This document shows positions 6,482 through 62,532 of a DNA stretch of 64,000 bases, piece by piece (position 1 is the first letter of the stretch; each line of letters opens with the position of its first letter). Location: positions 132,314 to 196,313 of the forward strand of contig CAZXQA010000001.1 in NCBI GenBank assembly GCA_964642835.1, given 5' to 3'. Below the pieces are notes generated by a model that ran no database searches, was not told where the DNA came from, and saw only the letters and a list, made by a program, of their open reading frames with translations. Position numbers and translations under genes: made by a program. The DNA comes from an uncultured Candidatus Saccharibacteria bacterium. Lineage in GTDB: Bacteria > Patescibacteriota > Minisyncoccia > Phycocordibacterales > Zambryskibacteraceae.

Positions 6482-6549
6482 GCAAGTTCTTTCGAACACG
6501 CACCCGTTCAGCTACATGCTGGGCGGGTGTTTTTTGTTGTTCTGGTATA

Positions 6550-7608
6550 ATGCTCTCAATGGTAAAACAGGAGAGTAAAAGTGAAGGGGTGCTTTACCGG
6601 AAGTACCGGCCGCAAACCTTCGAGGATGTGATCGGTCAGGACCATATTGTGAAGGTCTTGAAGGGCGCTATCGCGCTCGGTAACGTTGCCCACGCCTATC
6701 TCTTCTCCGGGACGCGCGGTACGGGGAAGACCTCGATGGCTCGCATTCTTGCCCGCGCTATTGGCACCTCGGCCAATGACCTCACCGAGATGGACGCCGC
6801 GTCGAACCGTGGGATCGACGATGTCCGTGAGATTCGCGACTCGGTGAATACCTTGCCGTTCGAAAGTAAGTATAAGGTTTACATTATCGACGAGGTGCAC
6901 ATGCTCACGAAGGATGCTTGGAACGCGTTTCTGAAGACCTTGGAGGAACCGCCGGCGCATGTTGTCTTTATTCTCGCGACCACCGAGCTTGAGAAGGTGC
7001 CGGAGACCGTGGTCTCACGCTGCCAGACCTTCACCTTCAAGTCACCGAACCTCGCGACCCTTAAGGACTTCGCGCTCGCTATTGCAAAGAAAGAGGGCGC
7101 GACGCTTGAACCAGCGGCAGCTGAACTCGTGGCGCTTCTCGGAGATGGATCCTTCCGCGACACGCACGGGATCTTGGAGAAGATTGTGAGCTCAACGGCC
7201 GAGAAGACCATCACCCGCGCAGATGTTGAGGTGGTGACTGGCGCGCCGAAGGCCGAGCTTGTCTCCGCGATTCTGGAAGCAGTAGTGGGGAAGGACTTCG
7301 CGAAGGGCGCCGCCGCCGTCCAGGCGGCGGCGCAGGCGAACGCGGACATGAAGCTCTTTGCCAAACTCATTCTCGAGCGACTCCGCTTCCTCTTCCTCCT
7401 GCGTCTCAAGGCGGGGATGGAGGATTATATTTCCAAACAAATTTCCGAAGACGATTTCTCTTTCTTAAAGACGCTTGCCGCCAAGGCCGGCCCCCATCTT
7501 ACCTCGGAGACTCTCATCCGATTTATCGAAGCGTACGAAAATTCCGGCCGCACCTCGATCCCCGAACTCGCTCTCGAGATTGCGTTAGCAGATTCCACCC
7601 AGAAGTAA
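6550..7608 (+). CDS. dnaX: DNA polymerase III subunit gamma/tau (short form)
   Basis: YRKYRPQTFEDVIGQ, GTRGTGKTS Walker A, DEVHML Walker B, SRCQTF sensor. Start could be 6550, 6559 or 6589. Upstream TGGTATAAT at 6544-6552. The ORF-track extension back to 6274 is not coding. Confidence 0.85.
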   Translation: MLSMVKQESKSEGVLYRKYRPQTFEDVIGQDHIVKVLKGAIALGNVAHAYLFSGTRGTGKTSMARILARAIGTSANDLTEMDAASNRGIDDVREIRDSVNTLPFESKYKVYIIDEVHMLTKDAWNAFLKTLEEPPAHVVFILATTELEKVPETVVSRCQTFTFKSPNLATLKDFALAIAKKEGATLEPAAAELVALLGDGSFRDTHGILEKIVSSTAEKTITRADVEVVTGAPKAELVSAILEAVVGKDFAKGAAAVQAAAQANADMKLFAKLILERLRFLFLLRLKAGMEDYISKQISEDDFSFLKTLAAKAGPHLTSETLIRFIEAYENSGRTSIPELALEIALADSTQK

Positions 7609-9248: not shown

Positions 9249-9321
9249 TGCCCGATCGTCTAATGGTAGGACAGAGGCCTTTGAAGCCTTTAATTGGGGT
9301 TCGAATCCCTGTCGGGCAGCA
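9249..9321 (+). tRNA. tRNA-Gln (anticodon UUG)
   Basis: Cloverleaf folded by hand: acceptor TGCCCGA/TCGGGCA with U1-A72 and G73 (Gln identity elements), D-arm GTCT/GGAC, anticodon stem GAGGC/GCCTT with loop CTTTGAA, T-arm TGGGG-TTCGAAT-CCCTG. The 3' CCA is not encoded (gene ends GCA then A). Confidence 0.8.
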
Positions 9322-9461: not shown

Positions 9462-9575
9462 ACGGTAGTCGAGAATCCCTGTCGGGCAGCCAAGTCGTGC
9501 GACGCACGAGACGCGTCAAAACAACAATATTTTAGGTCTGCATAGAGCGCACCCGTTTAGGACAGGGAAACCTGG
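9462..9575 (+). repeat. tRNA-Gln-derived intergenic repeat, copy 1 (3'-end+CCA module, hairpin, 5'-half-like module)
   Basis: TCGAGAATCCCTGTCGGGCAGCCAAGTCGTGCGACGCACGAGACGCGTCAAAACAACAATATTTTAGGTCTGCATAGAGCGCACCCGTTTAGGACAGGG. The first 17 nt equal the tRNA-Gln 3' end plus CCA. The last part matches the tRNA-Gln D-arm/anticodon stem (TAGGACAG) with the D-loop deleted. Confidence 0.7.
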
Positions 9576-11164: not shown

Positions 11165-11335
11165 GGGCGCCTTAAGAGCTACCCATCTTGAGCAGGGAAC
11201 TTTTTAGCTATTTTCAATGGTTCGCTCGTTGTAAAATAAGACTATTCTGGGACTCGGTTCGATTCCAAGACCCGCAGCCAAGTCGAGCTTAGCTCGAGAT
11301 GTGTTAAAACAACGATATCAGATACATATAGAATC
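11165..11335 (+). repeat. tRNA-Gln-derived intergenic repeat, copy 2 (long form with 5' AGCAGGGAACTTTTTAGCTATTTT module)
   Basis: Shares about 130 nt with copies at 18630 and 25753 (…CCCATCTYGAGCAGGGAACTTTTTAGCTATTTT…AAAATAAGRSTATTCTGGGACTCGGTTCGATTMC…GCAGCCAAGTCGAGC…). Confidence 0.65.
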
Positions 11336-11352
11336 TATCGCTACACTTTTGA

Positions 11353-17292: not shown

Positions 17293-17323
17293 CTCATTAT
17301 ACTATGGGGTGTGGAATTTGATC

Positions 17324-17369
17324 TCGTTGCATAGAGCGGTCCCTCTTAGGACTCGAACTTTGGTATAAT
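17324..17369 (+). promoter_or_regulatory. conserved promoter module (extended -10, TGgTATAAT) for the NUDIX operon
   Basis: CGTTGCATAGAGCGGTCCCTCTTAGGACTCGAACTTTGGTATAAT. Nearly identical modules precede the genes at 39066 and 58127. ATG lies 12 nt after the TATAAT. Confidence 0.6.
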
Positions 17370-17381: not shown

Positions 17382-17825
17382 ATGGAATATAGAAAAGCCA
17401 ACTCTTTCGGAGTTATTCCAGTCTGCAAAGACGCCAATGTCTATAAAATATTGATAGTTAAAAATAGTAAGGGTTGTCACTGGGGTTTACCAAAAGGCAC
17501 ACCCGAAGGTAACGAAATTCCGTTAGAGACAGCTGAAAGAGAGCTTAGGGAAGAAACTGGCATTGGATCAAGTGGTATTAGAATACAAGAGTCTCCTGTT
17601 TTCCTGGAATCATATTCTTTCAAACAGGGTGATCTTGTTTATGATAAAACGAATACTTATTATCTTGGATTTGTTTCTGAAATGAGTATTGGAAAGAACC
17701 TTGATGAAATAGATGAAGTTAGGTGGATTCCAATCGATGAAGCTGTAAATATCTTAAGTCATCAAAGTGTTATTGATGTTATATCTAAACTAAGAAGTTA
17801 CTTAAATACTCATAATTTGGTATAA
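17382..17825 (+). CDS. NUDIX hydrolase
   Basis: 147 aa. NUDIX box GLPKGTPEGNEIPLETAERELREETGI. Confidence 0.85.
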   Translation: MEYRKANSFGVIPVCKDANVYKILIVKNSKGCHWGLPKGTPEGNEIPLETAERELREETGIGSSGIRIQESPVFLESYSFKQGDLVYDKTNTYYLGFVSEMSIGKNLDEIDEVRWIPIDEAVNILSHQSVIDVISKLRSYLNTHNLV

Positions 17826-17837
17826 TCAACTTTTCTT

Positions 17838-18377: not shown

Positions 18378-18629
18378 GATATAAAAAGAGGGGAAGCCGT
18401 CTGTGCTTCCCCGGATCGGATGTTGAAGCTTCCTGAACATCCGTTAATTAAAAAATACTTATCGGTACATTGCACTCGAAAAGCTATTGAGAGGTTTTTA
18501 AATGGCGATGTTGCTAATAGCAACTTCTTGTTTACACTAGTTAGCTTAACGGCTTGGTGGGACATTTTTATTGAGCCTTCAAAATCCGAATATTTTAGAT
18601 AATTTAAGAAATAGGTTTTTGCATTGTTC

Positions 18630-18790
18630 TAGATGCTACCCATCTCAAGCAGGGAACTTTTTAGCTATTTTTACACTCGGGCTCATTGCAAAATAAGGCT
18701 ATTCTGGGACTCGGTTCGATTACTAGACCTGCAGCCAACTCATGATAGGTTATCGCGCTCGAGACGCATTAAAACAAGGACACCGTAGCA
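18630..18790 (+). repeat. tRNA-Gln-derived intergenic repeat, copy 3 (long form)
   Basis: CTAGATGCTACCCATCTCAAGCAGGGAACTTTTTAGCTATTTTT…GGACTCGGTTCGATTACTAGACCTGCAGCCAACTCATGATAGGTTATCGCGCTCGAGACGCATTAAAACAAGG. Confidence 0.65.
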
Positions 18791-25752: not shown

Positions 25753-25945
25753 CTCTAGACGCTCCCCGTCTCGAGCACGGGAACTTTTAAGCTATTTCTA
25801 GGTTTGGGCTATCGTAAAATAAGGGTATTCTAGGACTCGGTTCGAGTCCCTGTCGGGCAGCCAACTCGTGAGGCGCACAAAACGCGTCAAAACAACGATA
25901 TTTTAGGTCTGCATAGAGCGCACCCGTCTAGGACTCGAATTTTTG
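25753..25945 (+). repeat. tRNA-Gln-derived intergenic repeat, copy 4 (long form, full tRNA 3' module)
   Basis: …GGACTCGGTTCGAGTCCCTGTCGGGCAGCCAACTCGTGAGGCGCACAAAACGCGTCAAAACAACGATATTTTAGGTCTGCATAGAGCGCACCCGTCTAGGACTCGAA. Confidence 0.7.
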
Positions 25946-26488
25946 TGTGTTATTTTTCTCAATCAACTCCTTCATGTGAGAAGCAATTGGTCCTCTAATT
26001 ACATTCTCTAATTTTAAAAGCTCTTCCAATCGTTTAAGACCTTCAACGGTATTCGACTTAAACTCAACCGTATAAAAATCTTTTAGATCGTCCACCCTCT
26101 CTAGATCTATTTGGTCCTCGCCCAGGTCGTATTGCCAGCCAGTACGGTTAAACTCAAATTCATATCGGTATTGATTTAAAAGATTTTCTTCTACAAATTT
26201 AAGAGCTTCTTCTTCAGTTTCAAAACCTTTCTTGAGAGGCACTACAGTATCTACCCCAATTTCTTTCTGTTCGTGAATTTTCACCGCCACCATTACATTT
26301 GAGTCATTCCAAATATTTTTCTGGTAGATTCTCACCCTCAGAAATTCGTCATCTAAACCCTTAGGGGGGTTGTAAGAGGAATAAATCTTGTCTCGTAAAA
26401 TATATTCACCCTTAAAGACGGCTCCATTTTCCTCAAGGGTTTTCCTTGTTGAATCTATTTCGGAAGAAAATGTTCTAGCTTCAATCAT
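25928..26488 (-). CDS. hypothetical protein, possibly CYTH-like (class IV adenylate cyclase / triphosphate tunnel fold), weak
   Basis: Start taken at MIEARTF (ATG 26488-26486; TTATAAT 9 nt upstream on the minus strand). The ORF-track N-terminal extension to 26656 looks non-coding. Acidic beta-rich composition. Confidence 0.3.
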   Translation of the reverse strand: MIEARTFSSEIDSTRKTLEENGAVFKGEYILRDKIYSSYNPPKGLDDEFLRVRIYQKNIWNDSNVMVAVKIHEQKEIGVDTVVPLKKGFETEEEALKFVEENLLNQYRYEFEFNRTGWQYDLGEDQIDLERVDDLKDFYTVEFKSNTVEGLKRLEELLKLENVIRGPIASHMKELIEKNNTQKFES

Positions 26489-26711
26489 GGGAGAATTATA
26501 ACAAATTTCTCTAAATAACAGTGTTCCGAGGAGGGTCCGAATGTTAGAATAAAAAGTGTCAAAAAAGCCTTGCGAGGTCTCGCGGTGGTGGTTCCGAGAC
26601 CGAGAAGGCCAGCAAACTTGAGCTAGCACGAGATGCTTACAAAATAAGCTCTCCAACTAGCCGAGGTCTATCCTGTAATTGCATACCTGCTGAGAGCAGT
26701 ATCCAGAACAA

Positions 26712-30372: not shown

Positions 30373-30768
30373 ATGAATAAAATCGCTTTATCAATTATTA
30401 CTATCGGACTCATTGTTGGAATTGGTGTTATTTTTGTAGGATCGAAGGATGGCGACAAAACTGCATTAACACAGTCTATGCAAAATGTTGAAGTAAAAGA
30501 TGGGATTCAATACATAACTATCGACGCTAAAGGTGGATATTCTCCAAAACTCTCTAATGCAAAGGCTGACATTCCTACCAAGTTGATCGTGAAAACAAAC
30601 GGAACTTATGACTGCTCTTCTTCACTTGTAATCAAGTCATTGGGATATCAAAAGATATTAGCGCAAACTGGAGAAGAGATGATTGATGTTGGAACACCTA
30701 AAGCAGGAGAACCACTTCAAGGAGTTTGTGGTATGGGGATGTATAGCTTCGTAGTTAATTTTAGCTAA
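30373..30768 (+). CDS. membrane-anchored cupredoxin-like copper-binding protein
   Basis: 131 aa. N-terminal TM, C-terminal C…GVCGMGMYSF Cys/Met cluster as in Cupredoxin_1-type proteins of cop operons. Confidence 0.45.
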   Translation: MNKIALSIITIGLIVGIGVIFVGSKDGDKTALTQSMQNVEVKDGIQYITIDAKGGYSPKLSNAKADIPTKLIVKTNGTYDCSSSLVIKSLGYQKILAQTGEEMIDVGTPKAGEPLQGVCGMGMYSFVVNFS

Positions 30769-32050
30769 TGCATATATTTTTTTCTTTTAGCAGTATTTTG
30801 CTTTTAAAACAGGTAAGCAGTTCTCGTTTCTCTTCAACTGTTCCATCTTTCAGTATGAATTTAGCGTAATCTCTAATATCCACGTCTTTAACTTGTATTT
30901 GCTGTTTAATACCTAAGATAGATTGCTGGAACTTCTTTATGCGCTCGACCTCATATTTTATTTTCTCTCTCATGCCTATTTCATTAAGATTTATATGAGT
31001 AAGGATCTTCACAAACTGTTGTATTAGGTCAGTTTCCTTGATATAACCACATTTGCAATCCTTGTCTTTAGATTTCGTGCATCCATAATAAACATGTCTG
31101 TTCACTGATCCGTCTTTCAGCTTCTTAAACTTTTCATCAGCACATATTCCAGAGCCACACAAAGCGCATGTCATTATTTTGGTGAACGCAAATTCTTTTG
31201 GTTCCTGTACCCGTAATATCTGACTTTTAATTTGCTGTTGAACTTGGTCAAATAACTCTTTTGAAATTATTGCTTCATGAACTCCTTTGTACCAAAGCCC
31301 ACTCTTTCTAGGATATTCAAATGAACCGTAATAGAAGTCGTTTTGTAAAAGAAGATAGATGTTGCTCAAAGTCAGACCCTTGTTTCCGTTAGGTGTTTTA
31401 AAGTTCAACTCGAACTTGAGCCAGTTATAAATTTTGCGACCGCTCCATTTCTCATAGGCAACTTTCTCAAACATCTTCCTTATGATTGGCCCTCGTTCTG
31501 GATCTATGTAAACATGACCTTTGCGGTCGACTCGCTTTTCATTGAGATACCCCATCGGAGCGGGGGCGGGCCATAAACCCATCTCGCAACGAGTCCTCAG
31601 CCCACGCTTCACGTTGATGCTCTTGTTGTCATTCTCAAGCTTTGCCTGAGAACAGAGAATCATTAATAGGAACTTCTCGCTTGGAGTATTCGTAAACGTC
31701 TGACCATAAGTGCGTATCTGAACCAGAAGTTTCTGATCCATTAAGTCCACTAGAGAACCTAGATCTCCCGCATTTCTACTCAACCTATCTGGATGCCAAA
31801 CAATGATTCCATTAAATCGCTGTCTTCTTAAGTCTTCCAAGATTTCTTTGAAGACTGGTCTTTGTCCTGAATCTTTTGCAGAGTGCGCCTCTCTTCGTAT
31901 GTCTATAACATCAAGATTTTCTCTTTCGGCTATGGCTAGCATTTCCTTAACTTGGGATTCGATTGAAAGGGCTTGCTTCTCGTCTTGTTCAGTGGATTTA
32001 CGAGCATAGAGAACGTACTTAACTCTTGGGGCTGGTTGTGTGGTTTCCAT
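30761..32050 (-). CDS. large serine recombinase (integrase/resolvase family)
   Basis: 429 aa. N-terminal resolvase catalytic domain (YVLYARKSTEQDEKQALSIESQ, catalytic Ser), recombinase domain, C-terminal Cys-rich zinc ribbon (CALCG…CTKSKDKDCKC). Confidence 0.9.
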   Translation of the reverse strand: METTQPAPRVKYVLYARKSTEQDEKQALSIESQVKEMLAIAERENLDVIDIRREAHSAKDSGQRPVFKEILEDLRRQRFNGIIVWHPDRLSRNAGDLGSLVDLMDQKLLVQIRTYGQTFTNTPSEKFLLMILCSQAKLENDNKSINVKRGLRTRCEMGLWPAPAPMGYLNEKRVDRKGHVYIDPERGPIIRKMFEKVAYEKWSGRKIYNWLKFELNFKTPNGNKGLTLSNIYLLLQNDFYYGSFEYPRKSGLWYKGVHEAIISKELFDQVQQQIKSQILRVQEPKEFAFTKIMTCALCGSGICADEKFKKLKDGSVNRHVYYGCTKSKDKDCKCGYIKETDLIQQFVKILTHINLNEIGMREKIKYEVERIKKFQQSILGIKQQIQVKDVDIRDYAKFILKDGTVEEKRELLTCFKSKILLKEKNICIS

Positions 32051-32365
32051 GTATATATTGGTGCCAGACCAGTAAACCCTGCATAGCTATGCAGACTAGG
32101 GAATTCGTCGCATACTCGCTATGGGCCTTAGCAAGATTGACCCACTAAGATATAATGTTATGGTGTGAAAGTTTAAGTGCTGTGGCCTAAACTCTTGGTG
32201 CGAATCAGGAGCATGGTCAAAAATCATAGGACATAAAGAACCCATCATTAGGGCATGTCCTATGTTATAGGGGGAAACTCCTATAGGGGGCTTCGGCCTC
32301 TCCTAGTGGTGGGCTTTTTGTTACAAAAAAACCACCATTAATTATTACTTTAATCTTAATAATTT

Positions 32366-32668
32366 ATGGAATTTTGGATCTGGGCACTACTAATTATCGC
32401 TCTGTACTTTGCGCCAACAATTACTGCTTACGATAAGAAAAAGAAGAATACTGGGGCAATATTTGCCCTCAACTTCTTTCTTGGTTGGACTTTGGTAGGT
32501 TGGGTGGTCGCGTTAGTTTGGGCTACTACCGTTGAGAAAGAAGAAAGGGTAGAGGTTGTAAGGGGATCATCAAGTATTGATGATTTACACAAGTTAGCAG
32601 AACTAAAAGAGAAAGGACTTATCAGCGAAGAAGAGTTCAACAAAAAGAAGCAACAAGTGCTTGGTTAG
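32366..32668 (+). CDS. superinfection immunity protein (Imm_superinfect) fused to SHOCT domain
   Basis: 100 aa. YFAPTITAYDKKKKNTGAIFALNFFLGWTLVGWVVALVWA matches the phage superinfection-immunity family. C-terminal SIDDLHKLAELKEKGLISEEEFNKKK is a SHOCT motif. Confidence 0.75.
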   Translation: MEFWIWALLIIALYFAPTITAYDKKKKNTGAIFALNFFLGWTLVGWVVALVWATTVEKEERVEVVRGSSSIDDLHKLAELKEKGLISEEEFNKKKQQVLG

Positions 32669-33216
32669 TTTTTCTGGGGCTTGTTTCTTTTCTCCTCATA
32701 TTCTTTCTTCCATTCCTCAAAGAGTTCTCTTGCCCTCTTCTCTCTATCGTGATCCATAACCTTTTTCCACTTGTCCATCCATTTTTGTGCCTGATTTGCA
32801 GCTTCTTCGTTTCTTATGCGATTTTTTTCTGTGATCGTATATTTTATTTCCTCTTCAATCTGGCGTTTCTTTACTCCTTCCAAGGTGGAGCGGAAGTGAG
32901 AGATCAGATCATCAGAATCAACCTTAAAGACGTATGGCCTTCTGAAATCAGGGTGCCTGTGACTCAACCAATACTTTGTGTACATAGGATCCTTTTTCTT
33001 GATGCCATCAAGAACATTACTTACGGCCACATCACTCACTAACCCAGTGCCAAGAGACAAGGCCTCGTTAACCTGGGAGAGAAATTCTTTATCTTCTTTC
33101 ATCCAGCGATAGAAGGTATTTCTTGAGACACCCACCTTTTCGCAAGCTCCCAGAATAAGGCCTGTTTTCTCAAGCTCCTCTATAAGTCTATTCACTAGTG
33201 CCTTTGTCTTTTTCAT
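32665..33216 (-). CDS. HTH-domain protein, possible phage terminase small subunit
   Basis: 183 aa. N-terminal ACEKVGVSRNTFYRWMKEDKEF homeodomain-like HTH, highly charged C-terminal coiled region. No large terminase subunit nearby. Confidence 0.35.
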   Translation of the reverse strand: MKKTKALVNRLIEELEKTGLILGACEKVGVSRNTFYRWMKEDKEFLSQVNEALSLGTGLVSDVAVSNVLDGIKKKDPMYTKYWLSHRHPDFRRPYVFKVDSDDLISHFRSTLEGVKKRQIEEEIKYTITEKNRIRNEEAANQAQKWMDKWKKVMDHDREKRARELFEEWKKEYEEKRNKPQKN

Positions 33217-34474
33217 AGAGGGCTTTTTCTCCAGTTAATTTTTCCCATCTCCGCACAATCAGGTCGCAGAACTTTGGTTCCAGTTCACAACCATATACTC
33301 GTCGTTTAAGGATCTCTCCCGCAATCAAAGTGCTGCCAGATCCCAAGAAGCTGTCTAAGATGATGTCATTAGGCCTTGTACAGCGTTTAATAGCCTTCTC
33401 ATGGAGTTCTGGTGGCTTTGAGGTGGCGTGTTCGTATTCTTTGGCACCAAGGCGTTTAACTGCCCAGATATCGCCGATTTCATCGAGCATGTCGTTGCCG
33501 CTGGTTACTTCCTTGTTCATGACCTCATTGAGATCTTGTCTCAAATCAGAAAGGAATGGAGATCCGCGAGTGCCGTAAGTGCACGGTTCATAGCATTTGT
33601 TGAAAGCGGAAGTTGGGGTGGGGTTGTGTCCGTTCTTAATCCAGAGACAAACTCTCTTGTTTGCGATACCAAGCTCCTGATACAGGGTTTGCATGAGCCA
33701 GATATAACGCTGGTCAGACCAGTAGAAGATATGAAGATCGTTCTTAGAGACTGACAAGGCATTCTCAAGAGACTGCCTGATGAGATTTTTATAATCCCCC
33801 TCTTTTTGATTGTCGTTTACTTTGCCTCCGTAGCCTTTCTTCTTGCTTATGCCTTTGTCGTAGTCGATGCCGATGTTGTAGATCGGATCGGAGTAGATCA
33901 TGGATGCTTTATCTTTCCCTAAGAGTTTCTTAAGGTTTTCTTTATCAGTTGAATCTCCACAGAGAACTCGGTGCTTACCGAGTATGATAAGGTCGCCTAA
34001 CTTTGTTGTAGGCTCTTTAATATTCTTAAGTTCCTTCTCAACGTCGAAGTCTTCTTCTGCAACTTCCTTTTCTCTATCGAAGATGTTGGCGAGCTCAAGT
34101 CCATCAAAGCCTGCGAATTCGAGGGTATCGAAATCGAAGGATTTAAGGAGTTCAAAGTCCCAATCACCGCCGAGCTTGTTTGAGGCAATCAGGTATTCTT
34201 TCGATTCTTCCACTGTGAGCTTGCGATTGGGGACACGGACGTCGATTAATTCTTCTCCACGCCCAAGAAGCTGAAGAGCTTTAATGCGCTGATGTCCGGC
34301 AAGGATAGTGCCATCAGTATCAACCGCAGGAATCTCTACAAGATTGTATTTCTTGAGACTTCTTTTAAGATCCGACATCTGTTTGTCGGTAATTGTGCGA
34401 GGATTTACCTCTTGGGGAACAAGGTCGTTAACACGGTAACAATCTGTACGCCATTCTAACTTTAAGTTTTTCAT
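33188..34474 (-). CDS. ParB-like nuclease domain fused to DNA N6-adenine/N4-cytosine methyltransferase (beta class)
   Basis: Start taken at MKNLKLEW (ATG 34474). ParB/Srx motif LAGHQRIKAL. MTase motif IV SDPIYNIG (DPPY-like) precedes motif I ILDSFLGSGSTLIAGE (beta-class order). Typical phage/plasmid orphan methylase. Confidence 0.85.
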   Translation of the reverse strand: MKNLKLEWRTDCYRVNDLVPQEVNPRTITDKQMSDLKRSLKKYNLVEIPAVDTDGTILAGHQRIKALQLLGRGEELIDVRVPNRKLTVEESKEYLIASNKLGGDWDFELLKSFDFDTLEFAGFDGLELANIFDREKEVAEEDFDVEKELKNIKEPTTKLGDLIILGKHRVLCGDSTDKENLKKLLGKDKASMIYSDPIYNIGIDYDKGISKKKGYGGKVNDNQKEGDYKNLIRQSLENALSVSKNDLHIFYWSDQRYIWLMQTLYQELGIANKRVCLWIKNGHNPTPTSAFNKCYEPCTYGTRGSPFLSDLRQDLNEVMNKEVTSGNDMLDEIGDIWAVKRLGAKEYEHATSKPPELHEKAIKRCTRPNDIILDSFLGSGSTLIAGEILKRRVYGCELEPKFCDLIVRRWEKLTGEKALYEKDKGTSE

Positions 34475-34823
34475 GACTTTAAAACCTATTTTGTTAATGC
34501 GTACAAACAAAAACACCAACTTTTTGAATTGGTGTTTTTGCGGGATAACGAAAGCAATAACAACAACCAAAAAGGCTGTAACTATTACTTCCGTCAAAAA
34601 GAATCGTACCTAGACGCACTTTCGTGCCGGTAATTAACGTTCTACGGCTTTTGACTTATAACCGAATCGATGCCGGAGCAGACCCACTTTCCGTGTAAGG
34701 GTCTCAAAGAAGACAATTGATGTTTTGTGAATGTACTACTGTAATTATAAGACATGTATTTACTAGTTAGTAACTAGAGTTGTTGATAAAGAAGGTGTAT
34801 GCTAATCCCAAGAAAAACTTAAT

Positions 34824-36500
34824 ATGTCAATAAAGATTGTCCACGAAGAAATAAAACGTTTCTTGGAAAATGACGAACCAGAGGTTCTTTGTCTTAAGGG
34901 AAAGTGGGGCGTAGGTAAGACATATGCTTGGAATTACTTTCTTAAGGAAGCTGCAAGGAAAAAAGGTTTGGGTATGAATAAGTACGCGTATGTTTCTCTT
35001 TTTGGGCTTAAAAGTTTAGAAGAAGTTAAGTATGCATTATTTGAATCAACCGTTGCTGATGAGGCAATAGTAGATGGGCCAAGTGCAACAACCTTAGATA
35101 AGGGATTCACTTGGGTGAAAAAGAACTTGAGAAAGGGAGCTGGCTTGGTTAGTCAGAATCCTCTGGTTAAATCTTATATAGGGGAAACAGAGAAAAGCCT
35201 TTTCTTTCTAGTTAGAAATCAAGTTATTTGTATTGATGACTTAGAGCGAGCTAGTGAAGGTCTCGATATTAAAGATGTGTTTGGCCTAATTTCTTATTTA
35301 AAAGAGCAAAGGAGATGTAAGGTTGCCTTGCTTCTTAATGAAGAGAAGATTGCAGATAAAAGTGTTTATGATGAATTACTAGAAAAAGTGGTAGACACCA
35401 AGCTTGATTTCAGCCCAACTCCCTCAGAAGCATCTGATATTGTATTTCCATCACCTTCGGACAATCAAAAGTTGATACATGATAACTGCGTTAAATTAGG
35501 TATTACGAATATCAGAATCATCAAAAAGATTGAAAGGATTATTAAAAGATTTGAGGAAATTTTTGGAAAGAGTAGTTTACTAATGCCCCAAGTCGTTCGT
35601 TCAGGAACATTATTTGCATGGTCTATATATCAACCAAAAGAAGCTCCTCCTTTAGAATTTCTTGGTGATTTTGGGAGATTGAACAATTTGGGTCTGGAAA
35701 CAGACAAAGTTCCTGAATCTGAAAAGGAATGGCAACAGCTAATGAGAGAATATGGCCACTTTCAAATTGATGATTTTGACAAACAGATACTAGAAACCAT
35801 TAAAAGTGGGTACTTTAACAAAGATGTCTTACTGATTGCCGGGAAAAAACAGCTTGATGAATTCGATGAGGCGCAGGTAAAAAATGAATTTAGCCAAGCT
35901 TGGGACTTGTATCACAATTCTTTCGATCGCAACGAAAAAGAGGTGCTGGATGCAATTTATTCTTCTGCTAAGAAAGCTGCAAAGTTTATTGAGCCGTCAA
36001 ATATGGATGCAACAGTCGTATTTCTTAGAGAATTCGATAGAAAAGAGGAAGCTGAAGATTTGATTAAAACCTTCATCGAAGCTAGAGGAACTGACAAGGA
36101 AGTGGTTGATTTTGAAAACTCTTTCTTTTCAAGAGAGCTGAAAGATCAAAACTTCGCCACAGCATTAAAAAATAATGCAGAATCATTTAAGGATTCTCGT
36201 AGTCCTGCTCAGGTTCTAGAAGATGTGTATTTAAAAAGAGGTTGGAATCCAGAAGATGTACATCTTATTAACACTTTAACGAGTGCTGATTTCTATAACC
36301 TTTTTAAAAAAGCTAAAGGCATTGAAATGCATAGAATGGTGAAGATGGCTTTGGATTTTGGGAAATATACTGATGCCTCTGTAGAAATGAAAAGCATTGC
36401 CGAAAAAGCAATGCAGGCTTTGGAGAAAATTGGAAAAGAGACTCGGCTTAATGCCAAACGAGTGTCGCTTCGTGGAATTAAGGTTACCCCTGAAAAATGA
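34824..36500 (+). CDS. KAP-family P-loop NTPase
   Basis: 558 aa. LKGKWGVGKTYAWNYF Walker A and VICIDDLERA Walker B with KAP-type spacing, long helical C-terminal region. Confidence 0.7.
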   Translation: MSIKIVHEEIKRFLENDEPEVLCLKGKWGVGKTYAWNYFLKEAARKKGLGMNKYAYVSLFGLKSLEEVKYALFESTVADEAIVDGPSATTLDKGFTWVKKNLRKGAGLVSQNPLVKSYIGETEKSLFFLVRNQVICIDDLERASEGLDIKDVFGLISYLKEQRRCKVALLLNEEKIADKSVYDELLEKVVDTKLDFSPTPSEASDIVFPSPSDNQKLIHDNCVKLGITNIRIIKKIERIIKRFEEIFGKSSLLMPQVVRSGTLFAWSIYQPKEAPPLEFLGDFGRLNNLGLETDKVPESEKEWQQLMREYGHFQIDDFDKQILETIKSGYFNKDVLLIAGKKQLDEFDEAQVKNEFSQAWDLYHNSFDRNEKEVLDAIYSSAKKAAKFIEPSNMDATVVFLREFDRKEEAEDLIKTFIEARGTDKEVVDFENSFFSRELKDQNFATALKNNAESFKDSRSPAQVLEDVYLKRGWNPEDVHLINTLTSADFYNLFKKAKGIEMHRMVKMALDFGKYTDASVEMKSIAEKAMQALEKIGKETRLNAKRVSLRGIKVTPEK

Positions 36501-36512
36501 TATAATTTAACT

Positions 36513-38874: not shown

Positions 38875-38877
38875 TAT

Positions 38878-39062
38878 GCGCTCGAGACCCGTCGTTTTAG
38901 ATGCTAAAATTAAGCTAATTCCGTCAAGCGGGGCTTAACCGTTTACGGTTCGAGCTCGAGTCGGCCAGCCAACTCGTGCGATGCTCGAGACGCGTCTGCA
39001 CATCGTTTTCTTAGCTCTGCATAGAGCGCACCCTCTTGGGACTCGAACTTTGGTATACTTTT
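38878..39062 (+). repeat. tRNA-Gln-derived intergenic repeat, copy 5 (GCTCGAGACCCGTCGTTTTAGATGCTAAAATTAAGCTAATTCCGTCAAGC form + promoter module)
   Basis: …CGGTTCGAGCTCGAGTCGGCCAGCCAACTCGTGCGATGCTCGAGACGCGTCTGCACATCGTTTTCTTAGCTCTGCATAGAGCGCACCCTCTTGGGACTCGAACTTTGGTATACT. Confidence 0.7.
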
Positions 39063-53344: not shown

Positions 53345-53417
53345 TGCCCGATCGTCTAATGGTAGGACGCCCGCCTCTGGAGCGGTTAATTGGGGTTCGA
53401 GTCCCTGTCGGGCAGCA
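53345..53417 (+). tRNA. tRNA-Gln (anticodon CUG)
   Basis: Identical to the 9249 tRNA except the anticodon arm (CCCGC-CTCTGGA-GCGGT). U1-A72, G73. Same 6-nt upstream and 10-nt downstream flanks as the other copy. Confidence 0.8.
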
Positions 53418-53460: not shown

Positions 53461-53545
53461 TCTGAAATCCGATAGACAGGGACGAGAAAGCCGGAGTGCG
53501 ACGGCACGAGGCGGGGTCGCGAGCTTTTTCAGCAGAAAAAGACTT

Positions 53546-53653
53546 GTGACCGAGAGCGTACTCGCGGTCCCTGTCGGGCAGCCAACTCGTGCGAGGTTAT
53601 TGCGCACGAGACGCGTATGGAACACAAAACCGCCGTCTAGGCGGTTTTGTGCC
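53546..53653 (+). repeat. tRNA-Gln-derived repeat, copy 6 (GTGACCGAGAGCGTACTCGCGG + tRNA 3' module with loop-containing hairpin) + downstream hairpin
   Basis: GTGACCGAGAGCGTACTCGCGGTCCCTGTCGGGCAGCCAACTCGTGCGAGGTTATTGCGCACGAGACGCGT. The first 49 nt are identical to copy 9 (56136). Followed by CACAAAACCGCCGTCTAGGCGGTTTTGTG. Confidence 0.7.
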
Positions 53654-53673
53654 AAAAGCGATATAATTAAATT

Positions 53674-55153: not shown

Positions 55154-55305
55154 ACTGTCACTTTTGTCACTTTTTGAAGCGCTCGAGACCCGTCGTTTTA
55201 GATGCTAAAATTAAACTAATTCCGTCAAGCAGGGCTTGGTCCACTAGGGTTCGAGCACGAGACGGCCAGCCAACTCATGATAGGTTATCGCGCTCGAGAT
55301 GCATC
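55154..55305 (+). repeat. tRNA-Gln-derived repeat, copy 7 (cargo-free counterpart of copy 5)
   Basis: CTGTCACTTTTGTCACTTTTTGAAGCGCTCGAGACCCGTCGTTTTAGATGCTAAAATTAAACTAATTCCGTCAAGCAGGGCTTGG…GGGTTCGAGCACGAGACGGCCAGCCAACTCATGATAGGTTATCGCGCTCGAGATGCATC. Confidence 0.7.
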
Positions 55306-55502
55306 TGGGCTGTACCAGATTAATTCTGCATGAAGCGTGTTGTTTAGAATTTGAATATAAAAAGAAAAAGACCCAGCATATTTCAGCTGAGTCTACTTAC
55401 ACATTCATAAGATTTCTCCAATCTCGCCCGCCGTCGCGCGCCTCTTTCTGCGCCGCGACGGGCTTGCCGTTCCAGAAGGGTCGAACGGCTGACCTTGGCG
55501 CG

Positions 55503-55928
55503 CTATTGCGCCGACCGAGTGGGTCCGAGAACACCGAGCAGGTAGCTCGGCACTTCTTCGACAGGTTCGCGATTCGGGTCTTCCTTGTAGCCCTGGCACT
55601 TGATGTAGCCGTCTGCGTCCACGCTGGAGCGCAAGCAAGCTTCCGTCATCGGCCAGGCGCGCCTCGGTTCGTCCTCGAAGACGATCCAGAAGCACTCGCC
55701 CTCGGACTGCTGACTCGTGGCGCCGTATTTGCGGCACACCGAGATGACAGCGTTGGGGCGAACCCGTTCGTTTGTCGTGATGACTGCGACGACGGGCGTT
55801 GGAGCCATGAGGCCCCCTTCAAGCGGTGGGAAGAAATCCTTGTACATTGCATACCCCTCTTTATGGGTTACGAAAGCCAGGAATTGGCTATCTACTACCA
55901 TCTTATCATACTTAACTTGAATTGTCAA
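55503..55928 (-). CDS. hypothetical protein flanked by repeat copies 7 and 8
   Basis: 141 aa (TTG) or 131 aa (ATG 55901). Aromatic-rich globular composition. The overlapping + strand ORF 55299..55958 reads through repeat sequence and is rejected. Confidence 0.45.
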   Translation of the reverse strand: MTIQVKYDKMVVDSQFLAFVTHKEGYAMYKDFFPPLEGGLMAPTPVVAVITTNERVRPNAVISVCRKYGATSQQSEGECFWIVFEDEPRRAWPMTEACLRSSVDADGYIKCQGYKEDPNREPVEEVPSYLLGVLGPTRSAQ

Positions 55929-56022
55929 GTGCTCGAGATCCGTCGTTTTGAGTGCTAAAATAGTCTTAATTCCGTCAATCTGGCTTGGCCGATTAAGGTT
56001 CGATCACGAGACGGTCAGCCGA
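55929..56022 (+). repeat. tRNA-Gln-derived repeat, copy 8 (diverged GCTCGAGATCCGTCGTTTTGAG form)
   Basis: GCTCGAGATCCGTCGTTTTGAGTGCTAAAATAGTCTTAATTCCGTCAATCTGGCTTGGCCGATTAAGGTTCGATCACGAGACGGTCAGCCGA. Confidence 0.6.
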
Positions 56023-56135
56023 TTTTAAGTTTTTTGCAAGCGAAGCGCTCCTATACAAAAAAGCGTAAAATCGCTTCGCCGCGTCTCGCCAGAGACGCAA
56101 GAAGGTATTGGTATTTTTTGCACCTGGAAATATCT

Positions 56136-56200
56136 GTGACCGAGAGCGTACTCGCGGTCCCTGTCGGGCAGCCAACTCGTGCGACGCTCGAGATACGTCA
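56136..56200 (+). repeat. tRNA-Gln-derived repeat, copy 9
   Basis: GTGACCGAGAGCGTACTCGCGGTCCCTGTCGGGCAGCCAACTCGTGCGACGCTCGAGATACGTC. Confidence 0.7.
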
Positions 56201-56244
56201 ATACAAAGCTTTTATAAGCTCGTAAAGAGCGATATACTTTTGCC

Positions 56245-57946: not shown

Positions 57947-58082
57947 ACTCTAATTCTCGTGTTATTCTGGACCAATTAAGAGTTCTGAATACGTCCACAA
58001 AGGACAGCCAACGTGAGGTAGGTTCGGACTCCGAGGAGCTTCATATTTAGAGCCATTTTTTAAATTCGTGTTTTTCCTAAAA

Positions 58083-58108
58083 CTGAGCACCCTCTTAGGA
58101 ATCGAACT
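58083..58108 (+). promoter_or_regulatory. conserved promoter module (CCCTCTTAGGAATCGAACTTTGGTATAAT) for the 58127 operon
   Basis: Third copy of the module. TATAAT 58103-58108, ATG 18 nt later. Confidence 0.6.
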
Positions 58109-58126
58109 TTGGTATAATTACTAAAC

Positions 58127-61538: not shown

Positions 61539-61595
61539 GTTCGAATATCATCCCAGACGGCCAGCCAAGTCGTGCGACGCTCGAGATGCGTTAAT
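61539..61595 (+). repeat. tRNA-Gln-derived repeat, copy 10 (short form)
   Basis: GTTCGAATATCATCCCAGACGGCCAGCCAAGTCGTGCGACGCTCGAGATGCGTT. Confidence 0.65.
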
Positions 61596-61656
61596 GCAAC
61601 GCTTATCTAATTCTGTATAGTCTTAGCAAAGAACACGGGAGGCGTTAAAATATGAT

Positions 61657-62367
61657 ATGGCAGATAAATCTATTCGGATTGGACTTGGTTCAATTGATTC
61701 ACCGAAATCAGCTTTGTGGACAGTTGTAGTAGGAAACTCGCAGGTGTACTTTTCGCAAAGATCTGGAATGCAAATTTCAAAATTCAGTTTGCATGACTCA
61801 GGAAAATGGCGCTATGCGGTCAATGACTCAAACTGGTCCAAAGCAGAAGATAGGGCACTTAAAAAATGGGATAGACCAAATCCCATCTACAAGTCGTTGG
61901 TGCTAGGCCCAGCAATTGTTTTTCCTCCCATCGAGGCAGATTTACCTCTAGGTTATCCTGATACGTATACCAAAGAAACATTTTGGTTAATTCCACCAAA
62001 TTCTGAGCAGGTGCGGGTAATAATGTTATTTTTCTCTCTTGGAAATTCTCACCCAAAAGAACACTTTGAAAAACATAATATAAAACTAGACTGGTCATAT
62101 ACATTTCCAATAAAAAATAATTCAAGGCTGGGCGCAGATACTGTAACTGTTGCATCATGGCTTCAGCTTTATTCAAAAGGTGATCGCAAGCTTGTGACAG
62201 AGACATTATCGGGTGTGAAAATACATTATGATGGCGATGTAGAACCTGACATCAAAAGCACGGCCCTTCAAATTGTGACTCCTTCTGCTGAGGAGGTGTC
62301 TCAAGGTAAAACCATAACAATTTTTGAGGTAATGTTAGGTAGAGACAATCTTAGTAAAAACACCTAG
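61657..62367 (+). CDS. hypothetical protein
   Basis: 236 aa, Trp-rich, no motifs. Bounded by repeat copies 10 and 11. Confidence 0.4.
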   Translation: MADKSIRIGLGSIDSPKSALWTVVVGNSQVYFSQRSGMQISKFSLHDSGKWRYAVNDSNWSKAEDRALKKWDRPNPIYKSLVLGPAIVFPPIEADLPLGYPDTYTKETFWLIPPNSEQVRVIMLFFSLGNSHPKEHFEKHNIKLDWSYTFPIKNNSRLGADTVTVASWLQLYSKGDRKLVTETLSGVKIHYDGDVEPDIKSTALQIVTPSAEEVSQGKTITIFEVMLGRDNLSKNT

Positions 62368-62487: not shown

Positions 62488-62532
62488 TACAACGCTTTTC
62501 TAAGTCCGTAAAGCATGTATCATAGTGCGTAT

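Follow-up and report, generated by a model that had tools for sequence, protein, structure and literature searches.

Repeats that may derive from tRNA-Gln and carry leaderless promoters at the boundaries of gene blocks in a Saccharibacteria genome

We analyzed 64 kb of a Saccharibacteria genome (the window, by which we mean the whole stretch of DNA under study). A 29-nt sequence, CCCTCTTAGGAMTCGAACTTTGGTATAMT, occurs three times in the window, always on the + strand, and each copy terminates in an extended -10 box (TGnTATAMT) ahead of unrelated genes. It is very probable, judging from the sequence, that the 29-mer carries the promoter of the gene directly behind it. Our preferred explanation, to which we give a probability of about 0.5, is that the 29-mer is the gene-proximal end of repeats that derive from tRNA-Gln and that mark the boundaries of low-GC blocks of genes, and that it carries the leaderless promoter of the block. 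Saccharibacteria and other CPR bacteria have tiny genomes and are hard to culture, and almost no promoters or transcript maps have been defined for them experimentally.

Three copies of a 29-mer and its putative promoter box

These are the features of the three sites:

17328-17338, + strand: site 1, module C, TGCATAGAGCG, immediately 5' of 29-mer copy 1
17341..17369, + strand: 29-mer copy 1; the ATG of NUDIX-1 is at 17382, after a gap of 12 nt
17341-17358, + strand: site 1, right arm D, CCCTCTTAGGACTCGAAC
17361-17369, + strand: site 1, extended -10, TGGTATAAT
38875..39059, + strand: full-length composite repeat whose 3' end is 29-mer copy 2
38878-38946, + strand: site 2, upstream module
38947-38971, + strand: site 2, left arm, GGTTCGAGCTCGAGTCGGCCAGCCA, which resembles the 3' end of tRNA-Gln
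38966-38996, + strand: site 2, hairpin module B
39018-39028, + strand: site 2, module C
39031-39048, + strand: site 2, right arm D
39051-39059, + strand: site 2, extended -10, TGGTATACT; the ATG of DHH/DHHA2 is at 39066, after a gap of 6 nt
58010..58118, + strand: repeat variant at site 3, which includes 29-mer copy 3 at 58090-58118
~58020-58038, + strand: site 3, degenerate left arm, GGTTCGGACTCCGAGGAGC
58043-58056, + strand: site 3, ATATTTAGAGCCA
58110-58118, + strand: site 3, extended -10, TGGTATAAT; the ATG of the LigT-like gene is at 58127, after a gap of 8 nt

The initial annotation of this DNA had described a recurring module that ends in an extended -10 and lies before three unrelated operons, and this description is correct. 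The copies at 17341-17369, 39031-39059, and 58090-58118 have 0, 1, and 0 mismatches to the IUPAC pattern. No match would be expected by chance, and none of 100 dinucleotide-preserving shuffles contained any, which rules out a chance origin. As the annotation had stated, copy 1 precedes a NUDIX pair, copy 2 precedes DHH/DHHA2, and copy 3 precedes the gene for a LigT-like protein, behind which lies an ABC exporter. Because the flanking proteins are not paralogous, we also rejected gene duplication as the source of the copies. Site 3 is about 10 nt from its annotated position (58083-58108). The distance to the ATG had been given as 12, 7, and 18 nt; the first value stands, while the -10 hexamer is 6 nt from the ATG at site 2 and 8 nt from it at site 3.

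At all three sites, a TG lies one base 5' of the TATAAT-like hexamer (TGGTATAAT, TGGTATACT, and TGGTATAAT). The annotation had seen no obvious -35, and a consensus scan for -35/-10 pairs agrees: there is no TTGACA-like -35 at a spacing of 16-18 nt at any of the three sites. In sigma-70 promoters, the TGn extension makes up for a missing -35. The start of DHH/DHHA2 at 39066 agrees with the lengths of its homologues (305-310 amino acids); the public call for this gene begins 30 nt too early, within the repeat.

The exact cassette has no match in 185,579 species-representative genomes. We therefore do not consider it to be widely distributed; its single metagenome match (L022) is an unrelated chance hit. 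One IMG/VR match to module B (L027) is also an unrelated chance hit. Within the window, we do not claim a fourth copy of the 29-mer before NUDIX-2, since its 11 mismatches are at background (3.7 chance hits are expected).

Extended -10 boxes and start codons across the window

All seven of the TGnTA[TC]A[AC]T motifs in the 64 kb have a gene-start ATG 6-12 nt downstream. The four that lie outside the 29-mers are:

6543..6551, + strand: TGGTATAAT before dnaX; ATG 6560 is 7 nt on; outside any repeat
17818..17826, + strand: TGGTATAAT before NUDIX-2; ATG 17838 is 11 nt on
26495..26503, - strand: TGTTATAAT, 6 nt from ATG 26488
36498..36506, + strand: TGATATAAT, 6 nt from ATG 36513

The initial annotation had taken the entire 29-mer to be a promoter cassette. 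This needs to be revised: these four putative promoters stand without the conserved 18 nt that precede the -10 in the 29-mer, and those 18 nt are the right arm of an inverted repeat (see below). The stop codon of NUDIX-1 falls inside the box at 17818..17826. The box before dnaX had been recognized, with coordinates that were off by one base (6544-6552).

More broadly, a -10-like box ends 4-9 nt before the start of 13 of the 69 genes, versus 3.4 ± 1.8 in shuffled sequences, and just 1% of internal ATGs have a box at that position. The annotation had suggested comparing these distances with the presence of Shine-Dalgarno sequences. The boxes are enriched, while GGAG or GAGG is found upstream of 7 of the 69 starts (10%) and of 11% of internal ATGs, so there is no enrichment of Shine-Dalgarno sequences.

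For some starts, the details differ from what had been annotated. The starts at 42482 and 26488 do lie near TATAAT boxes, but the spacing is 7 nt and 6 nt instead of 8-9 nt (at 42482, GAGTATAAT is followed by 7 nt and the ATG). On the minus strand of the 17293-17381 spacer, a TATAAT is indeed present, and 3 nt separate it from the first ATG in the GT1 open reading frame; the public gene call (P0121, 413 amino acids) instead uses the second ATG, 12 nt past the TATAAT. At site 1, the 12-nt gap implies a leader of about 5 nt. The relatives of this genome show the same geometry of -10 and ATG.

Together, the 7/7 motif-to-start geometry and the lack of Shine-Dalgarno enrichment make it well supported by the sequence that leaderless or near-leaderless starts are widespread in the window, as the annotation had proposed. 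This is a known architecture. For example, in the "group C" genomes of GeneMarkS-2 (Actinobacteria and Deinococcus-Thermus), a Pribnow box lies 6-8 nt before the starts of the first genes of operons, and Shine-Dalgarno sequences are weak or absent (PMC6028130). The window resembles genomes with leaderless transcription in having Pribnow boxes near start codons and a weak or absent Shine-Dalgarno signal; unlike in group C genomes, some of its putative promoters sit within a repeat family. In the literature that we searched, we found no report of a leaderless or extended -10 architecture for Saccharibacteria. A simple rule, TGnTATAAT at 6-12 nt upstream of the ATG and no Shine-Dalgarno sequence, could improve the calling of start codons and the design of expression constructs.

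Mosaic repeats, low-GC blocks, and alternative explanations

Module D, as we call the conserved 18 nt that are 5' of the -10 box, forms the right arm of a mosaic repeat about 100-200 nt long. The left arm copies the 3' end of tRNA-Gln (...GGTTCGAGTCCCTGTCGGGCAGCCA), and the reverse complement of D aligns to this 3' end as well. (Every tRNA T-arm has GGANTCGAAY as its reverse complement.) A full repeat consists of, in order, a variable upstream module, a left arm that corresponds to the T-loop to the CCA of tRNA-Gln, a small hairpin (B), a short conserved box (C), arm D, and a T-rich tail. D, the first 18 nt of the 29-mer, is an imperfect, inverted version of the left arm, with which it pairs. 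In three copies, the tail (TTTGGTATAMT) would be an extended -10 promoter that is independent of a -35 and lies 6-12 nt before a start codon. At that distance, the downstream gene would be transcribed as a leaderless or near-leaderless mRNA, which is probably the normal mode of gene starts in this genome.

Members of the family are present in at least 12 of the 34 spacers of the window; they are modular, and they are in direct orientation only. Besides the three sites above, the main features are:

9249..9320, + strand: genuine tRNA-Gln(TTG), no encoded CCA; heads the first repeat array
9476..9567, + strand: copy ~155 nt past the real tRNA-Gln(TTG); displaced 3' end TCCCTGTCGGGCAGCCA, then B and C
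11178..11340, + strand: copy with a long upstream module, a pseudo-acceptor end, B, and a degenerate C
18628..18775, + strand: copy with a long upstream module, a pseudo-acceptor end, and a long-loop B
25753..25951, + strand: full-length copy in a convergent spacer; modules B and C; D at 25923-25940
53345..53416, + strand: genuine tRNA-Gln(CTG), no encoded CCA; heads the second repeat array
53545..53673, + strand: copy ~150 nt past the real tRNA-Gln(CTG); displaced 3' end with CCA, then B
55179..56244, + strand: three copies (55179-55302, 55922-56021, and 56135-56231), which bracket the open reading frame 55299-55958
61540..62514, + strand: two copies (61540-61624 and 62367-62514), which bracket a single gene (61657-62367)

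Identity of 17-25 nt to the 3' end of tRNA-Gln is found at 9476, 25839, 53568, and 56153, and other copies have diverged versions. All of these 3'-end copies are in direct orientation and downstream of tRNA-Gln genes. No repeat copies were found in the 3.6 kb beyond the window. In full-length copies, D pairs imperfectly (8-18 bp) with the left arm, 65-80 nt away; the variable upstream modules lie outside these inverted arms. The pairing is kept by sequences that differ between copies, and the single difference in the D core of site 2 gives better pairing with its own left arm. In the copy at 9476..9567, a variant right arm, GACAGGGA, pairs with TCCCTGTC. Site 1 is a solo fragment, with no left arm, in a divergent spacer.

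What follows the copies varies. At 25753..25951, the left arm (25839-25863) shares 23 identical nt with the 3' end of tRNA-Gln(CTG), and the tail, TTTTTGTGTGTTATTTTT, has no -10 box and no gene behind it. After B of the copy at 53545..53673 come a canonical terminator hairpin, GCGATATAAT, 6 nt, and an ATG at 53674. The last copy of the trio at 55179..56244 ends in ...AAAGAGCGATATACT, which is followed by 6 nt and then an ATG at 56245.

The initial annotation had called the module "tRNA 5'-half-like". The tRNA covariance model (Rfam RF00005) does not support this label, as it has no match in the repeats, even at E ≤ 10 on short stretches; the only tRNAs that Rfam and ARAGORN find in the window are the two real tRNA-Gln genes. 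Given this lack of support from Rfam or ARAGORN, we rejected a tRNA, a tmRNA, a permuted or split tRNA, or another known RNA.

The genes of the window have a bimodal GC content, and it is at block borders that the repeats are located. All 12 spacers with a repeat touch a low-GC gene, versus 10 of the 21 other spacers (p = 0.002). For example, the copy at 11178..11340 sits between ABC-F (GC 0.41) and the GT operon (GC ~0.55), and the copy at 18628..18775 closes the 3' side of the low-GC NUDIX block. Since all members of the family border low-GC blocks, it seems more likely that each repeat and its block belong together than that a repeat hopped before a resident operon. The location at the borders of low-GC blocks, the single orientation, and the arrays that run from tRNA-Gln genes make it most likely that gene blocks have built up downstream of tRNA-Gln and that the repeats are their recombination or boundary elements. 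D, with its promoter, would then be the end of the repeat that goes with the following block. We infer a recombinational origin, and with it a recombining enzyme, from this arrangement.

Some observations count against the boundary-element explanation. Low-GC genes account for 58% of the coding bases in the window, so either compartment could be the native one. Most blocks have no associated recombinase, and long direct repeats are not what large serine recombinases normally leave behind. Folding of the elements as wholes gives modest z-scores (-0.9 to -1.9). Among the genes between repeats are the housekeeping genes MetRS and ABC-F, which is unusual for acquired islands, and at one border between low and high GC (42352-42481) there is no recognizable repeat. 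We do not claim that the GT operon split one ancestral element into halves (11178-11340 and 17328-17369), because both halves carry a C-like box.

One low-GC stretch, between the repeats at 25753-25951 and 38875-39059, contains the core of a mobile element:

30761..34597, no strand assigned: conserved mobile-element core
30761-32050, - strand: large serine recombinase
32184-32301, + strand: LOOT RNA
32665-33216, - strand: HTH/terminase-small-like gene
33188-34597, - strand: DNA methylase

This recombinase/LOOT-RNA element lies between two full-length sites and is related to L028, which bears the cassette. L028 is the sole IMG/VR match to the cassette, and we do not consider it a chance hit, because its serine recombinase is 60% identical to the one in the window. 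The tail of its cassette is identical to TTTGGTATAATCAACTT (17815-17831), with 17 nt in common. The cassette is not a general trait of the recombinase/LOOT family, as it is absent from nine other recombinase-bearing elements from IMG/VR. A phage or plasmid origin of the composite element was rejected, with no match by blastn. In L002, a recombinase fragment lies 136 nt after tRNA-Gln.

Homologous modules are found in relatives among the Saccharibacteria. At the corresponding genes of other species, a diverged D module is found before DHH (sister species L023) and before the ABC exporter (L033). In L023, the extended -10 (TGTTATACT) and the 6-nt gap to the ATG of DHH are conserved, while D has diverged; L023 has 7 pseudo-acceptor motifs in 5 kb, one of them directly after DHH. 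In L033, the repeat before the related ABC exporter gene ends in D and has the architecture of site 3, and another D-ending repeat is at a second locus. A third species, L038, is uninformative at the ABC-exporter locus, as is L031, because the gene overlaps its upstream neighbor there. The gene order in L024 is Dus-dnaX-tRNA-Gln-(2 kb)-DHH; the distance between tRNA-Gln and DHH in the window is 30 kb. In L024, the real tRNA-Gln-CCA runs directly into B, C, a -10 box, and an ATG, and two further types of module are next in the array. Over 45 nt, paralogous copies share 83-90% identity; copies at the corresponding genes of other species share ~75% and have indels. The near-identity of the three 29-mers would be explained if they were copied or homogenized within this genome after it split from the sister species.

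The initial annotation suggested that mobile repeats deliver promoters here. On such a view, the repeat would be a non-autonomous transposable element, similar to a MITE or REP, that inserted between genes and had an outward promoter at one end by chance, as with Correia elements. We consider this unlikely. The repeats do have imperfect inverted arms, a length of 100-200 nt, many copies, and strictly intergenic locations; assemblies break at them; and paralogous copies resemble each other more than they resemble copies at the same gene in other species. Sigma-70-type promoters within repeats are documented for Correia, MITEAba12, BrickBuilt, and QMITE1 (PMC10969869). But inspection of the flanks of the mosaic copies, whose ends are blurred, showed no target-site duplications; no presence/absence polymorphism was seen in the comparisons with other species; and the 64-kb window has no transposase or RAYT-type gene. 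A single orientation for all copies is unusual for MITEs, and the copies are mosaics with differing left modules rather than one unit. Also, for two of the three loci, other species already have a D module at the corresponding gene, and the copies keep to low-GC blocks, in arrays that follow tRNA-Gln.

The 18 nt upstream of the -10 could instead be an operator or activator site, with a transcription factor that coregulates a small regulon of housekeeping genes for nucleotides and phosphoesters. Its members would be the NUDIX pair, the operon of the DHH/DHHA2 phosphoesterase, and the ABC exporter together with the LigT-like 2H phosphoesterase. These nucleotides lie at -13 to -35 relative to the expected start, which is a typical position for a regulator, and the downstream genes share a theme of nucleotide metabolism. 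Before the ABC exporter of L033, the flanks of the D core (TAGGAMTCGAACTT) have diverged while the core itself is conserved; in L028, the D sequence is a perfect 17-bp palindrome directly 5' of the -10 in a divergent spacer, much like an operator. Yet the D core is also present at 25923, with no gene behind it, and the sister species lacks the D core at DHH but keeps the promoter. The distance from D to the -10 varies, from 5 nt in the window to 16 nt and ~45 nt in L033. In full copies, D pairs with its partner 65-80 nt away through differing sequences. Overall, coregulation through D seems quite improbable.

Even more doubtful is a role at the 3' end of the upstream transcript, as a large terminator or stabilizer or a tRNA-like processing signal, with D as the closing strand, the T-rich tail as the U-tract, and an incidental TATAAT. 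Copies do follow + strand genes, in codirectional or convergent spacers; the closing helix is followed by a T-rich run; and a good T-tract, with no promoter, is seen in the copy at 25923. Site 1 does not fit: with no left arm and a position in a divergent spacer, it has nothing to terminate. Nor did the consensus scan find a terminator-like site at the three loci, and the closing helix of the full copies has 65-80 nt inside it. Ordinary terminators are present elsewhere, such as after both tRNA-Gln genes and at 53620-53650. There is no repeat between two high-GC genes, so the repeat is not a general terminator. The repeats match no tRNA or other Rfam model, and the 7/7 rule for extended -10 boxes argues for a box that functions.

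If the boundary-element explanation is right, then the family reveals a form of intergenic organization, in which elements derived from the 3' end of a tRNA punctuate arrays of compositionally distinct blocks, and each element supplies the next block with its promoter. Should blocks be exchanged at the repeats, episymbiotic bacteria would have an undescribed route for gene flow. Genome recovery is affected as well, since metagenomic assemblies break at the repeats.

Comparison with known repeats and islands

Like Correia elements (NEMIS/CREE), MITEAba12, BrickBuilt, and QMITE1, the repeats in the window are short, multi-copy, and intergenic, with inverted arms that could form a long hairpin. 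MITEs that bear promoters carry sigma-70-type elements at one end and can drive the adjacent gene (PMC10969869). Unlike these elements, the repeats have one orientation and neither a target-site duplication nor a cognate transposase that we could find in the 64-kb window. Their arms come from the 3' end of a tRNA, they are mosaics that border compositionally distinct blocks, and their promoter is an extended -10 only, placed for leaderless starts.

The repeats are also similar to BOX elements of Streptococcus pneumoniae and to BIME/REP elements of enterobacteria, which are mosaics of boxes in variable combinations, lie after genes, and have potential secondary structure. The modules, the phylum, and the origin from the 3' end of tRNA-Gln differ, and there is no RAYT in the window. 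Unlike BOX or BIME/REP elements, these repeats are limited to low-GC blocks and are anchored at tRNA-Gln genes.

Tandem islands at tRNA genes (attL/attR) share direct repeats of a tRNA 3' end, in one orientation, downstream of the intact tRNA; blocks that differ in composition; and an island with a recombinase between two copies. As in such islands, the intact 3' end of the tRNA (no CCA) differs from the displaced one (CCA). Unlike those islands, the blocks in the window are very small (0.7-13 kb), mostly lack integrases, and sometimes contain housekeeping genes, while the repeats extend far beyond their tRNA part, with an inverted arm and a promoter. The sole recombinase in the window is of the large serine type, not a tyrosine integrase. 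It lies in the middle of the 26-39 kb block, and within the window there is no integrase at each island edge and no recombinase in the other blocks.

In the attC arrays of integrons, imperfectly palindromic sites of ~60-200 nt lie 3' of each small block, in one orientation, with conserved ends and a variable middle, and are arrayed beside a fixed anchor. The repeats share these traits. We rejected an integron as such because the window has no IntI and no attC core sites. Specifically, Pfam found no IntI or other tyrosine recombinase in the window, and on reading the copies, we saw no RYYYAAC or GTTRRRY cores; their ends are GGTTCGAG.../...CAGCCA and ...GGACTCGAAC. Also, the blocks probably carry their own promoters, unlike integron cassettes, which are mostly promoterless, and the anchor is a tRNA gene, not attI. 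It is conceivable, but improbable, that Saccharibacteria have an integron-like system of small cassettes anchored at tRNA-Gln, with structured sites, a leaderless promoter in the inverted arm, and a serine recombinase/LOOT-RNA element that supplies the machinery or descends from it. The site of a cassette would be the copy of the tRNA-Gln 3' end plus the inverted arm (the 29-mer), and each newly captured block would arrive ready for expression. Overall, the 29-mer is an interesting variant of known things, not a new kind of system.

Extended −10 boxes and probable near-leaderless starts

The initial annotation described a cassette in front of three unrelated operons, and this is confirmed. The 29-mer pattern CCCTCTTAGGAMTCGAACTTTGGTATAMT has three matches, as compared to none in 100 dinucleotide-preserving shuffles, and all-against-all BLASTP found no paralogy among the genes downstream. 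Gaps below run from the hexamer to the next ORF's ATG.

Copies of the 29-mer
17341-17369, + strand: site 1, before a NUDIX hydrolase pair (gap of 12 nt)
39031-39059, + strand, 1 mismatch: site 2, before a DHH/DHHA2 phosphoesterase, the first gene of its operon (6 nt)
58090-58118, + strand: site 3, before a LigT-like 2H phosphoesterase and then an ABC exporter (8 nt)

Every copy ends in TGGTATAAT or TGGTATACT. With a probability of about 0.75, this terminal TGGTATAMT acts as promoter for the gene that follows, whose mRNA would be leaderless or nearly so. No −35/−10 pair was found at the three sites, in agreement with the initial annotation, which had also suggested that near-leaderless starts are widespread. 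Judging from motif statistics, this is probably correct. The motif TGnTA[TC]A[AC]T occurs seven times on the two strands of the 64 kb, and in all seven cases an ORF-opening ATG lies 6-12 nt downstream (dnaX, NUDIX-1, NUDIX-2, the gene at 36513, DHH, LigT, and the minus-strand gene at 26488). Four of the seven lack the 18 nt that come before the box in the 29-mer, which are thus dispensable for a promoter of this type. More broadly, a TAnnnT box (at least 5 of 6 positions matching) ends 4-9 nt before the start of 13 of 69 genes, versus 3.4 ± 1.8 genes with shuffled upstream regions (maximum 10 in 1000) and 1% of in-frame internal ATGs. GGAG or GAGG is found ahead of 10% of gene starts, versus 11% of internal ATGs. 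The boxes that had been noted at dnaX, at 42482, at 26488, and on the minus strand at the GT1 gene were right to within a base or two.

The DHH start at 39066 is backed by the lengths of homologues (305-310 amino acids). The public gene call for this protein (P0001, 316 amino acids) takes as its start a TTG within the repeat (39036-39066 region): in-frame start codons that are carried by the repeat mislead gene callers here. At 17815-17831, the NUDIX-1 stop codon falls within the −10 box of the NUDIX-2 promoter, and this sequence (TTTGGTATAATCAACTT) shares a 17-nt identity with the cassette tail of L028, a viral-database (IMG/VR) contig. Possibly this is the remnant of another cassette copy, but similarity across the full 29 nt does not exceed background.

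Anatomy and placement of the repeat

The 29-mer forms the 3' terminus of repeats from a modular family; full members lie at, for example, 38875-39059 and 25753-25951.

Parts of a full member
Part 1: long variable upstream module, of at least five types
Part 2: left arm, a copy of the tRNA-Gln T-loop-to-acceptor end plus CCA, such as GGTTCGAGTCCCTGTCGGGCAGCCA
Part 3: hairpin B, ACTCGTGCGAYGCWCGAGACGCGTC, with a spacer after it
Part 4: box C, TGCATAGAGCG
Part 5: arm D, CACCCkyyTAGGAMTCGAAY
Part 6: T-rich tail

The left arm GGTTCGAGTCCCTGTCGGGCAGCCA matches the tRNA-Gln(CTG) gene at 23 of 23 positions, and the reverse complement of D aligns to the tRNA-Gln 3' end. Searches against Rfam, its tRNA model included, matched nothing in the repeats, so the likeness is one of local sequence identity only, and the initial label of a tRNA 5'-half-like module is not backed by the tRNA model. 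In predicted RNA folds the left arm pairs with D, in three different ways.

Predicted arm pairings
25839: GGTTCGAGTCC.../...GGACTCGAATT
38947: GGTTCGAGCTCGAG/CTTGGGACTCGAAC
9476: TCCCTGTC/GACAGGGA

The sole difference of site 2 within the D core, a G at 39038, improves the pairing to its own left arm. The left arm is degenerate at site 3 and absent at site 1. The long upstream modules are closed by CTCGAG-type palindromes, with a few compensatory changes.

Of the 34 spacers that are 40 nt or longer, 12 hold family members, always in direct orientation on the + strand. By GC skew the + strand is the leading one, and it also carries most of the genes, so repeat orientation is inseparable from both. 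Per-gene GC is bimodal (0.34-0.45 vs. 0.52-0.59; GC3 0.24-0.48 vs. 0.54-0.73), and blocks of low and high GC alternate at a scale of 1-13 kb, with low-GC genes making up 58% of the window's coding bases. Repeat positions coincide with low-GC block borders. All 12 repeat-bearing spacers touch a low-GC gene, versus 10 of 21 other spacers (Fisher p = 0.002), and the 11 spacers flanked by high-GC genes on both sides are all free of repeats. Each of the three 29-mer copies marks a low-GC block at its upstream edge (GC of 0.34-0.39 for the NUDIX pair, 0.35-0.40 for the DHH operon, and 0.39-0.42 for LigT-ABC). Housekeeping genes lie inside several blocks.

Both repeat arrays are headed by a real tRNA-Gln gene (9249 and 53345), which ends in ...GCAGCAA, without an encoded CCA, and is followed by a terminator hairpin (9249-9500 and 53345-53590 regions). 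About 150 nt past each of them is a displaced end, ...GCAGCCA (the last 17 nt plus CCA), with module B. This arrangement has the look of a small insertion by which the tRNA 3' end was replaced.

Three other features of the window deserve mention. ORF 55299-55958 (219 amino acids, GC 0.54, no Pfam match) has its ATG within module B of one repeat, and its 3' end reaches into the following one; this ORF is possibly no genuine gene. A DUF559 gene (Vsr-like endonuclease fold; 382-759, minus strand) has a GC of 0.44, while its neighbors are at 0.57-0.59, and is flanked by two 25-nt sequences, at 401-425 and 766-790; each of these is a hairpin (CCCTCTCC...GGAGAGGG), and their mutual complementarity is 92%; region 382-790 looks like a small inserted element. 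The high-GC part encodes an ECF-type sigma factor (Sigma70_r2 + r4_2; 47914-48507), and a two-component system lies at 51191-52644.

Relatives and mobile DNA

Relatives of the DHH protein are from Candidatus Saccharibacteria or Patescibacteria, and the nearest species representative is 61% identical. A search of 185,579 species-representative genomes found no cassette core, and the metagenome collection gave only one match, an unrelated AT-rich chance hit. The same genome is present in Logan assemblies, whose contigs terminate at the repeats; breakage of assemblies at the family implies many more copies genome-wide. Two of these contigs (L035 and L026) stop at 9283, in the tRNA-Gln T-arm region, and at about 38914, 152 nt upstream of DHH.

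The geometry of box and ATG is also present in relatives. In the sister species (L023; DHH 88% identical), C-D before DHH is diverged, with the extended −10 box and a 6-nt gap kept. A pseudo-acceptor motif follows DHH immediately, and seven such motifs lie within 5 kb, among small ORFs. In L024 (DHH 67% identical; GC 0.37), the real tRNA-Gln (3723-3800) encodes CCA and runs directly into B, C, and GCGATATAAT-N7-ATG, and two more module types of the family lie in the next spacers, each preceding a −10 box and ATG. L024 has the gene order Dus-dnaX-tRNA-Gln-(2 kb)-DHH, versus 30 kb from tRNA-Gln to DHH in the window. An ECF sigma factor adjoins DHH in both L024 and L025. In L033 (ABC exporter 82% identical; GC 0.39), an 85-nt two-copy repeat has the architecture of site 3 and ends in TAGGACTCGAACTT; one copy precedes the ABC exporter, and the −10 box is 16 nt or about 45 nt beyond the repeat end. 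No modules were found near relatives of the window's high-GC genes (L029).

Within the window, copies share 83-90% identity over 45 nt (27-28 of 29 positions in the 29-mer), versus about 75%, with indels, for those at the corresponding genes of other species, which implies copying or homogenization within this genome after speciation. Two relatives have a small GIY-YIG nuclease ORF near a D-bearing spacer: the one in L023 (3-335) adjoins the diverged C-D before DHH on its upstream side, and the one in L033 (8575-8826) is about 1.1 kb away from the ABC-exporter repeat, also upstream. It is conceivable that they act in local gene conversion.

Between the two best full-length copies is a low-GC stretch.

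Genes of the low-GC stretch at about 25.96-38.87 kb
30761-32050: large serine recombinase
32184-32301: LOOT RNA (RF03000; 75.7 bits), divergently adjoining the recombinase
Other genes: HTH/terminase-small-like, N6/N4 DNA methylase, superinfection-immunity gene, copper-resistance cluster

LOOT is present in 7 of 10 related recombinase-bearing contigs, so it is apparently a component of this mobile-element family. The core order recombinase-LOOT-HTH/terminase-small-like-methylase (30761-34597) is also found in IMG/VR contigs L039 and L040. L028 is the sole IMG/VR match to the cassette pattern, with the layout GTTCGAATCCCTTAGTG-TTCAT-CACTAAGGGATTCGAAC-TTTGGTATAAT-N7-ATG and a perfect 17-bp hairpin beside the −10 box. 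Its recombinase is 60% identical to the window's, and its methylase matches as well. Because this type of recombinase is in only about 10 of 2.9 million IMG/VR contigs, the match is not a coincidence. The cassette is absent from the nine other members of this element family. A tRNA-Ser adjoins two members, and at L002 a recombinase fragment lies 136 nt past tRNA-Gln. The composite repeat has no match among annotated phages and plasmids. Long direct repeats are not a usual product of large serine recombinases.

Origin of the repeat and known systems

If the promoter reading is correct, then it is somewhat more probable than not that the 18 nt ahead of the box form the right arm of a boundary repeat derived from tRNA-Gln, and that this repeat belongs to the low-GC block behind it. 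Block, arm D, and promoter would then go together as a unit, the three near-identical copies would reflect recent intragenomic copying or gene conversion, and transposition of a promoter cassette before resident operons would not be the origin. The initial annotation had mobile repeats delivering promoters: the extended −10 box as the repeat's end survives (7/7 box geometry), but a transposing cassette is not favored, given the GC-block borders.

A less probable rival explanation is a Correia-like MITE with an outward promoter; no further recombinase or transposase was found in the window. Or, less probably still, the 18 nt could be an operator for a shared regulator, or the repeat could be a 3'-end RNA structure, with the promoter incidental. 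The copy at 25923, which has the tail TTTTTGTGTGTT in place of a −10 box, points at a convergent gene's 3' end.

Repeat-borne promoters are already known (PMC10969869), as are leaderless group-C genomes (PMC6028130). The window's geometry matches group C of GeneMarkS-2, in which leaderless mRNAs have their Pribnow box 6-8 nt ahead of the start codon (PMC6028130); a full-text literature search found no published report of this architecture in Saccharibacteria. Mosaic intergenic repeats and tRNA-anchored island arrays are also known kinds. What appears to be new, as far as the literature search shows, is a putative boundary element with inverted arms that derives from the tRNA-Gln 3' end and bears an extended −10 leaderless promoter, combined with its apparent use to punctuate arrays of small gene blocks in Saccharibacteria. 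A more novel and much less likely reading is an integron-like cassette system anchored at tRNA-Gln.
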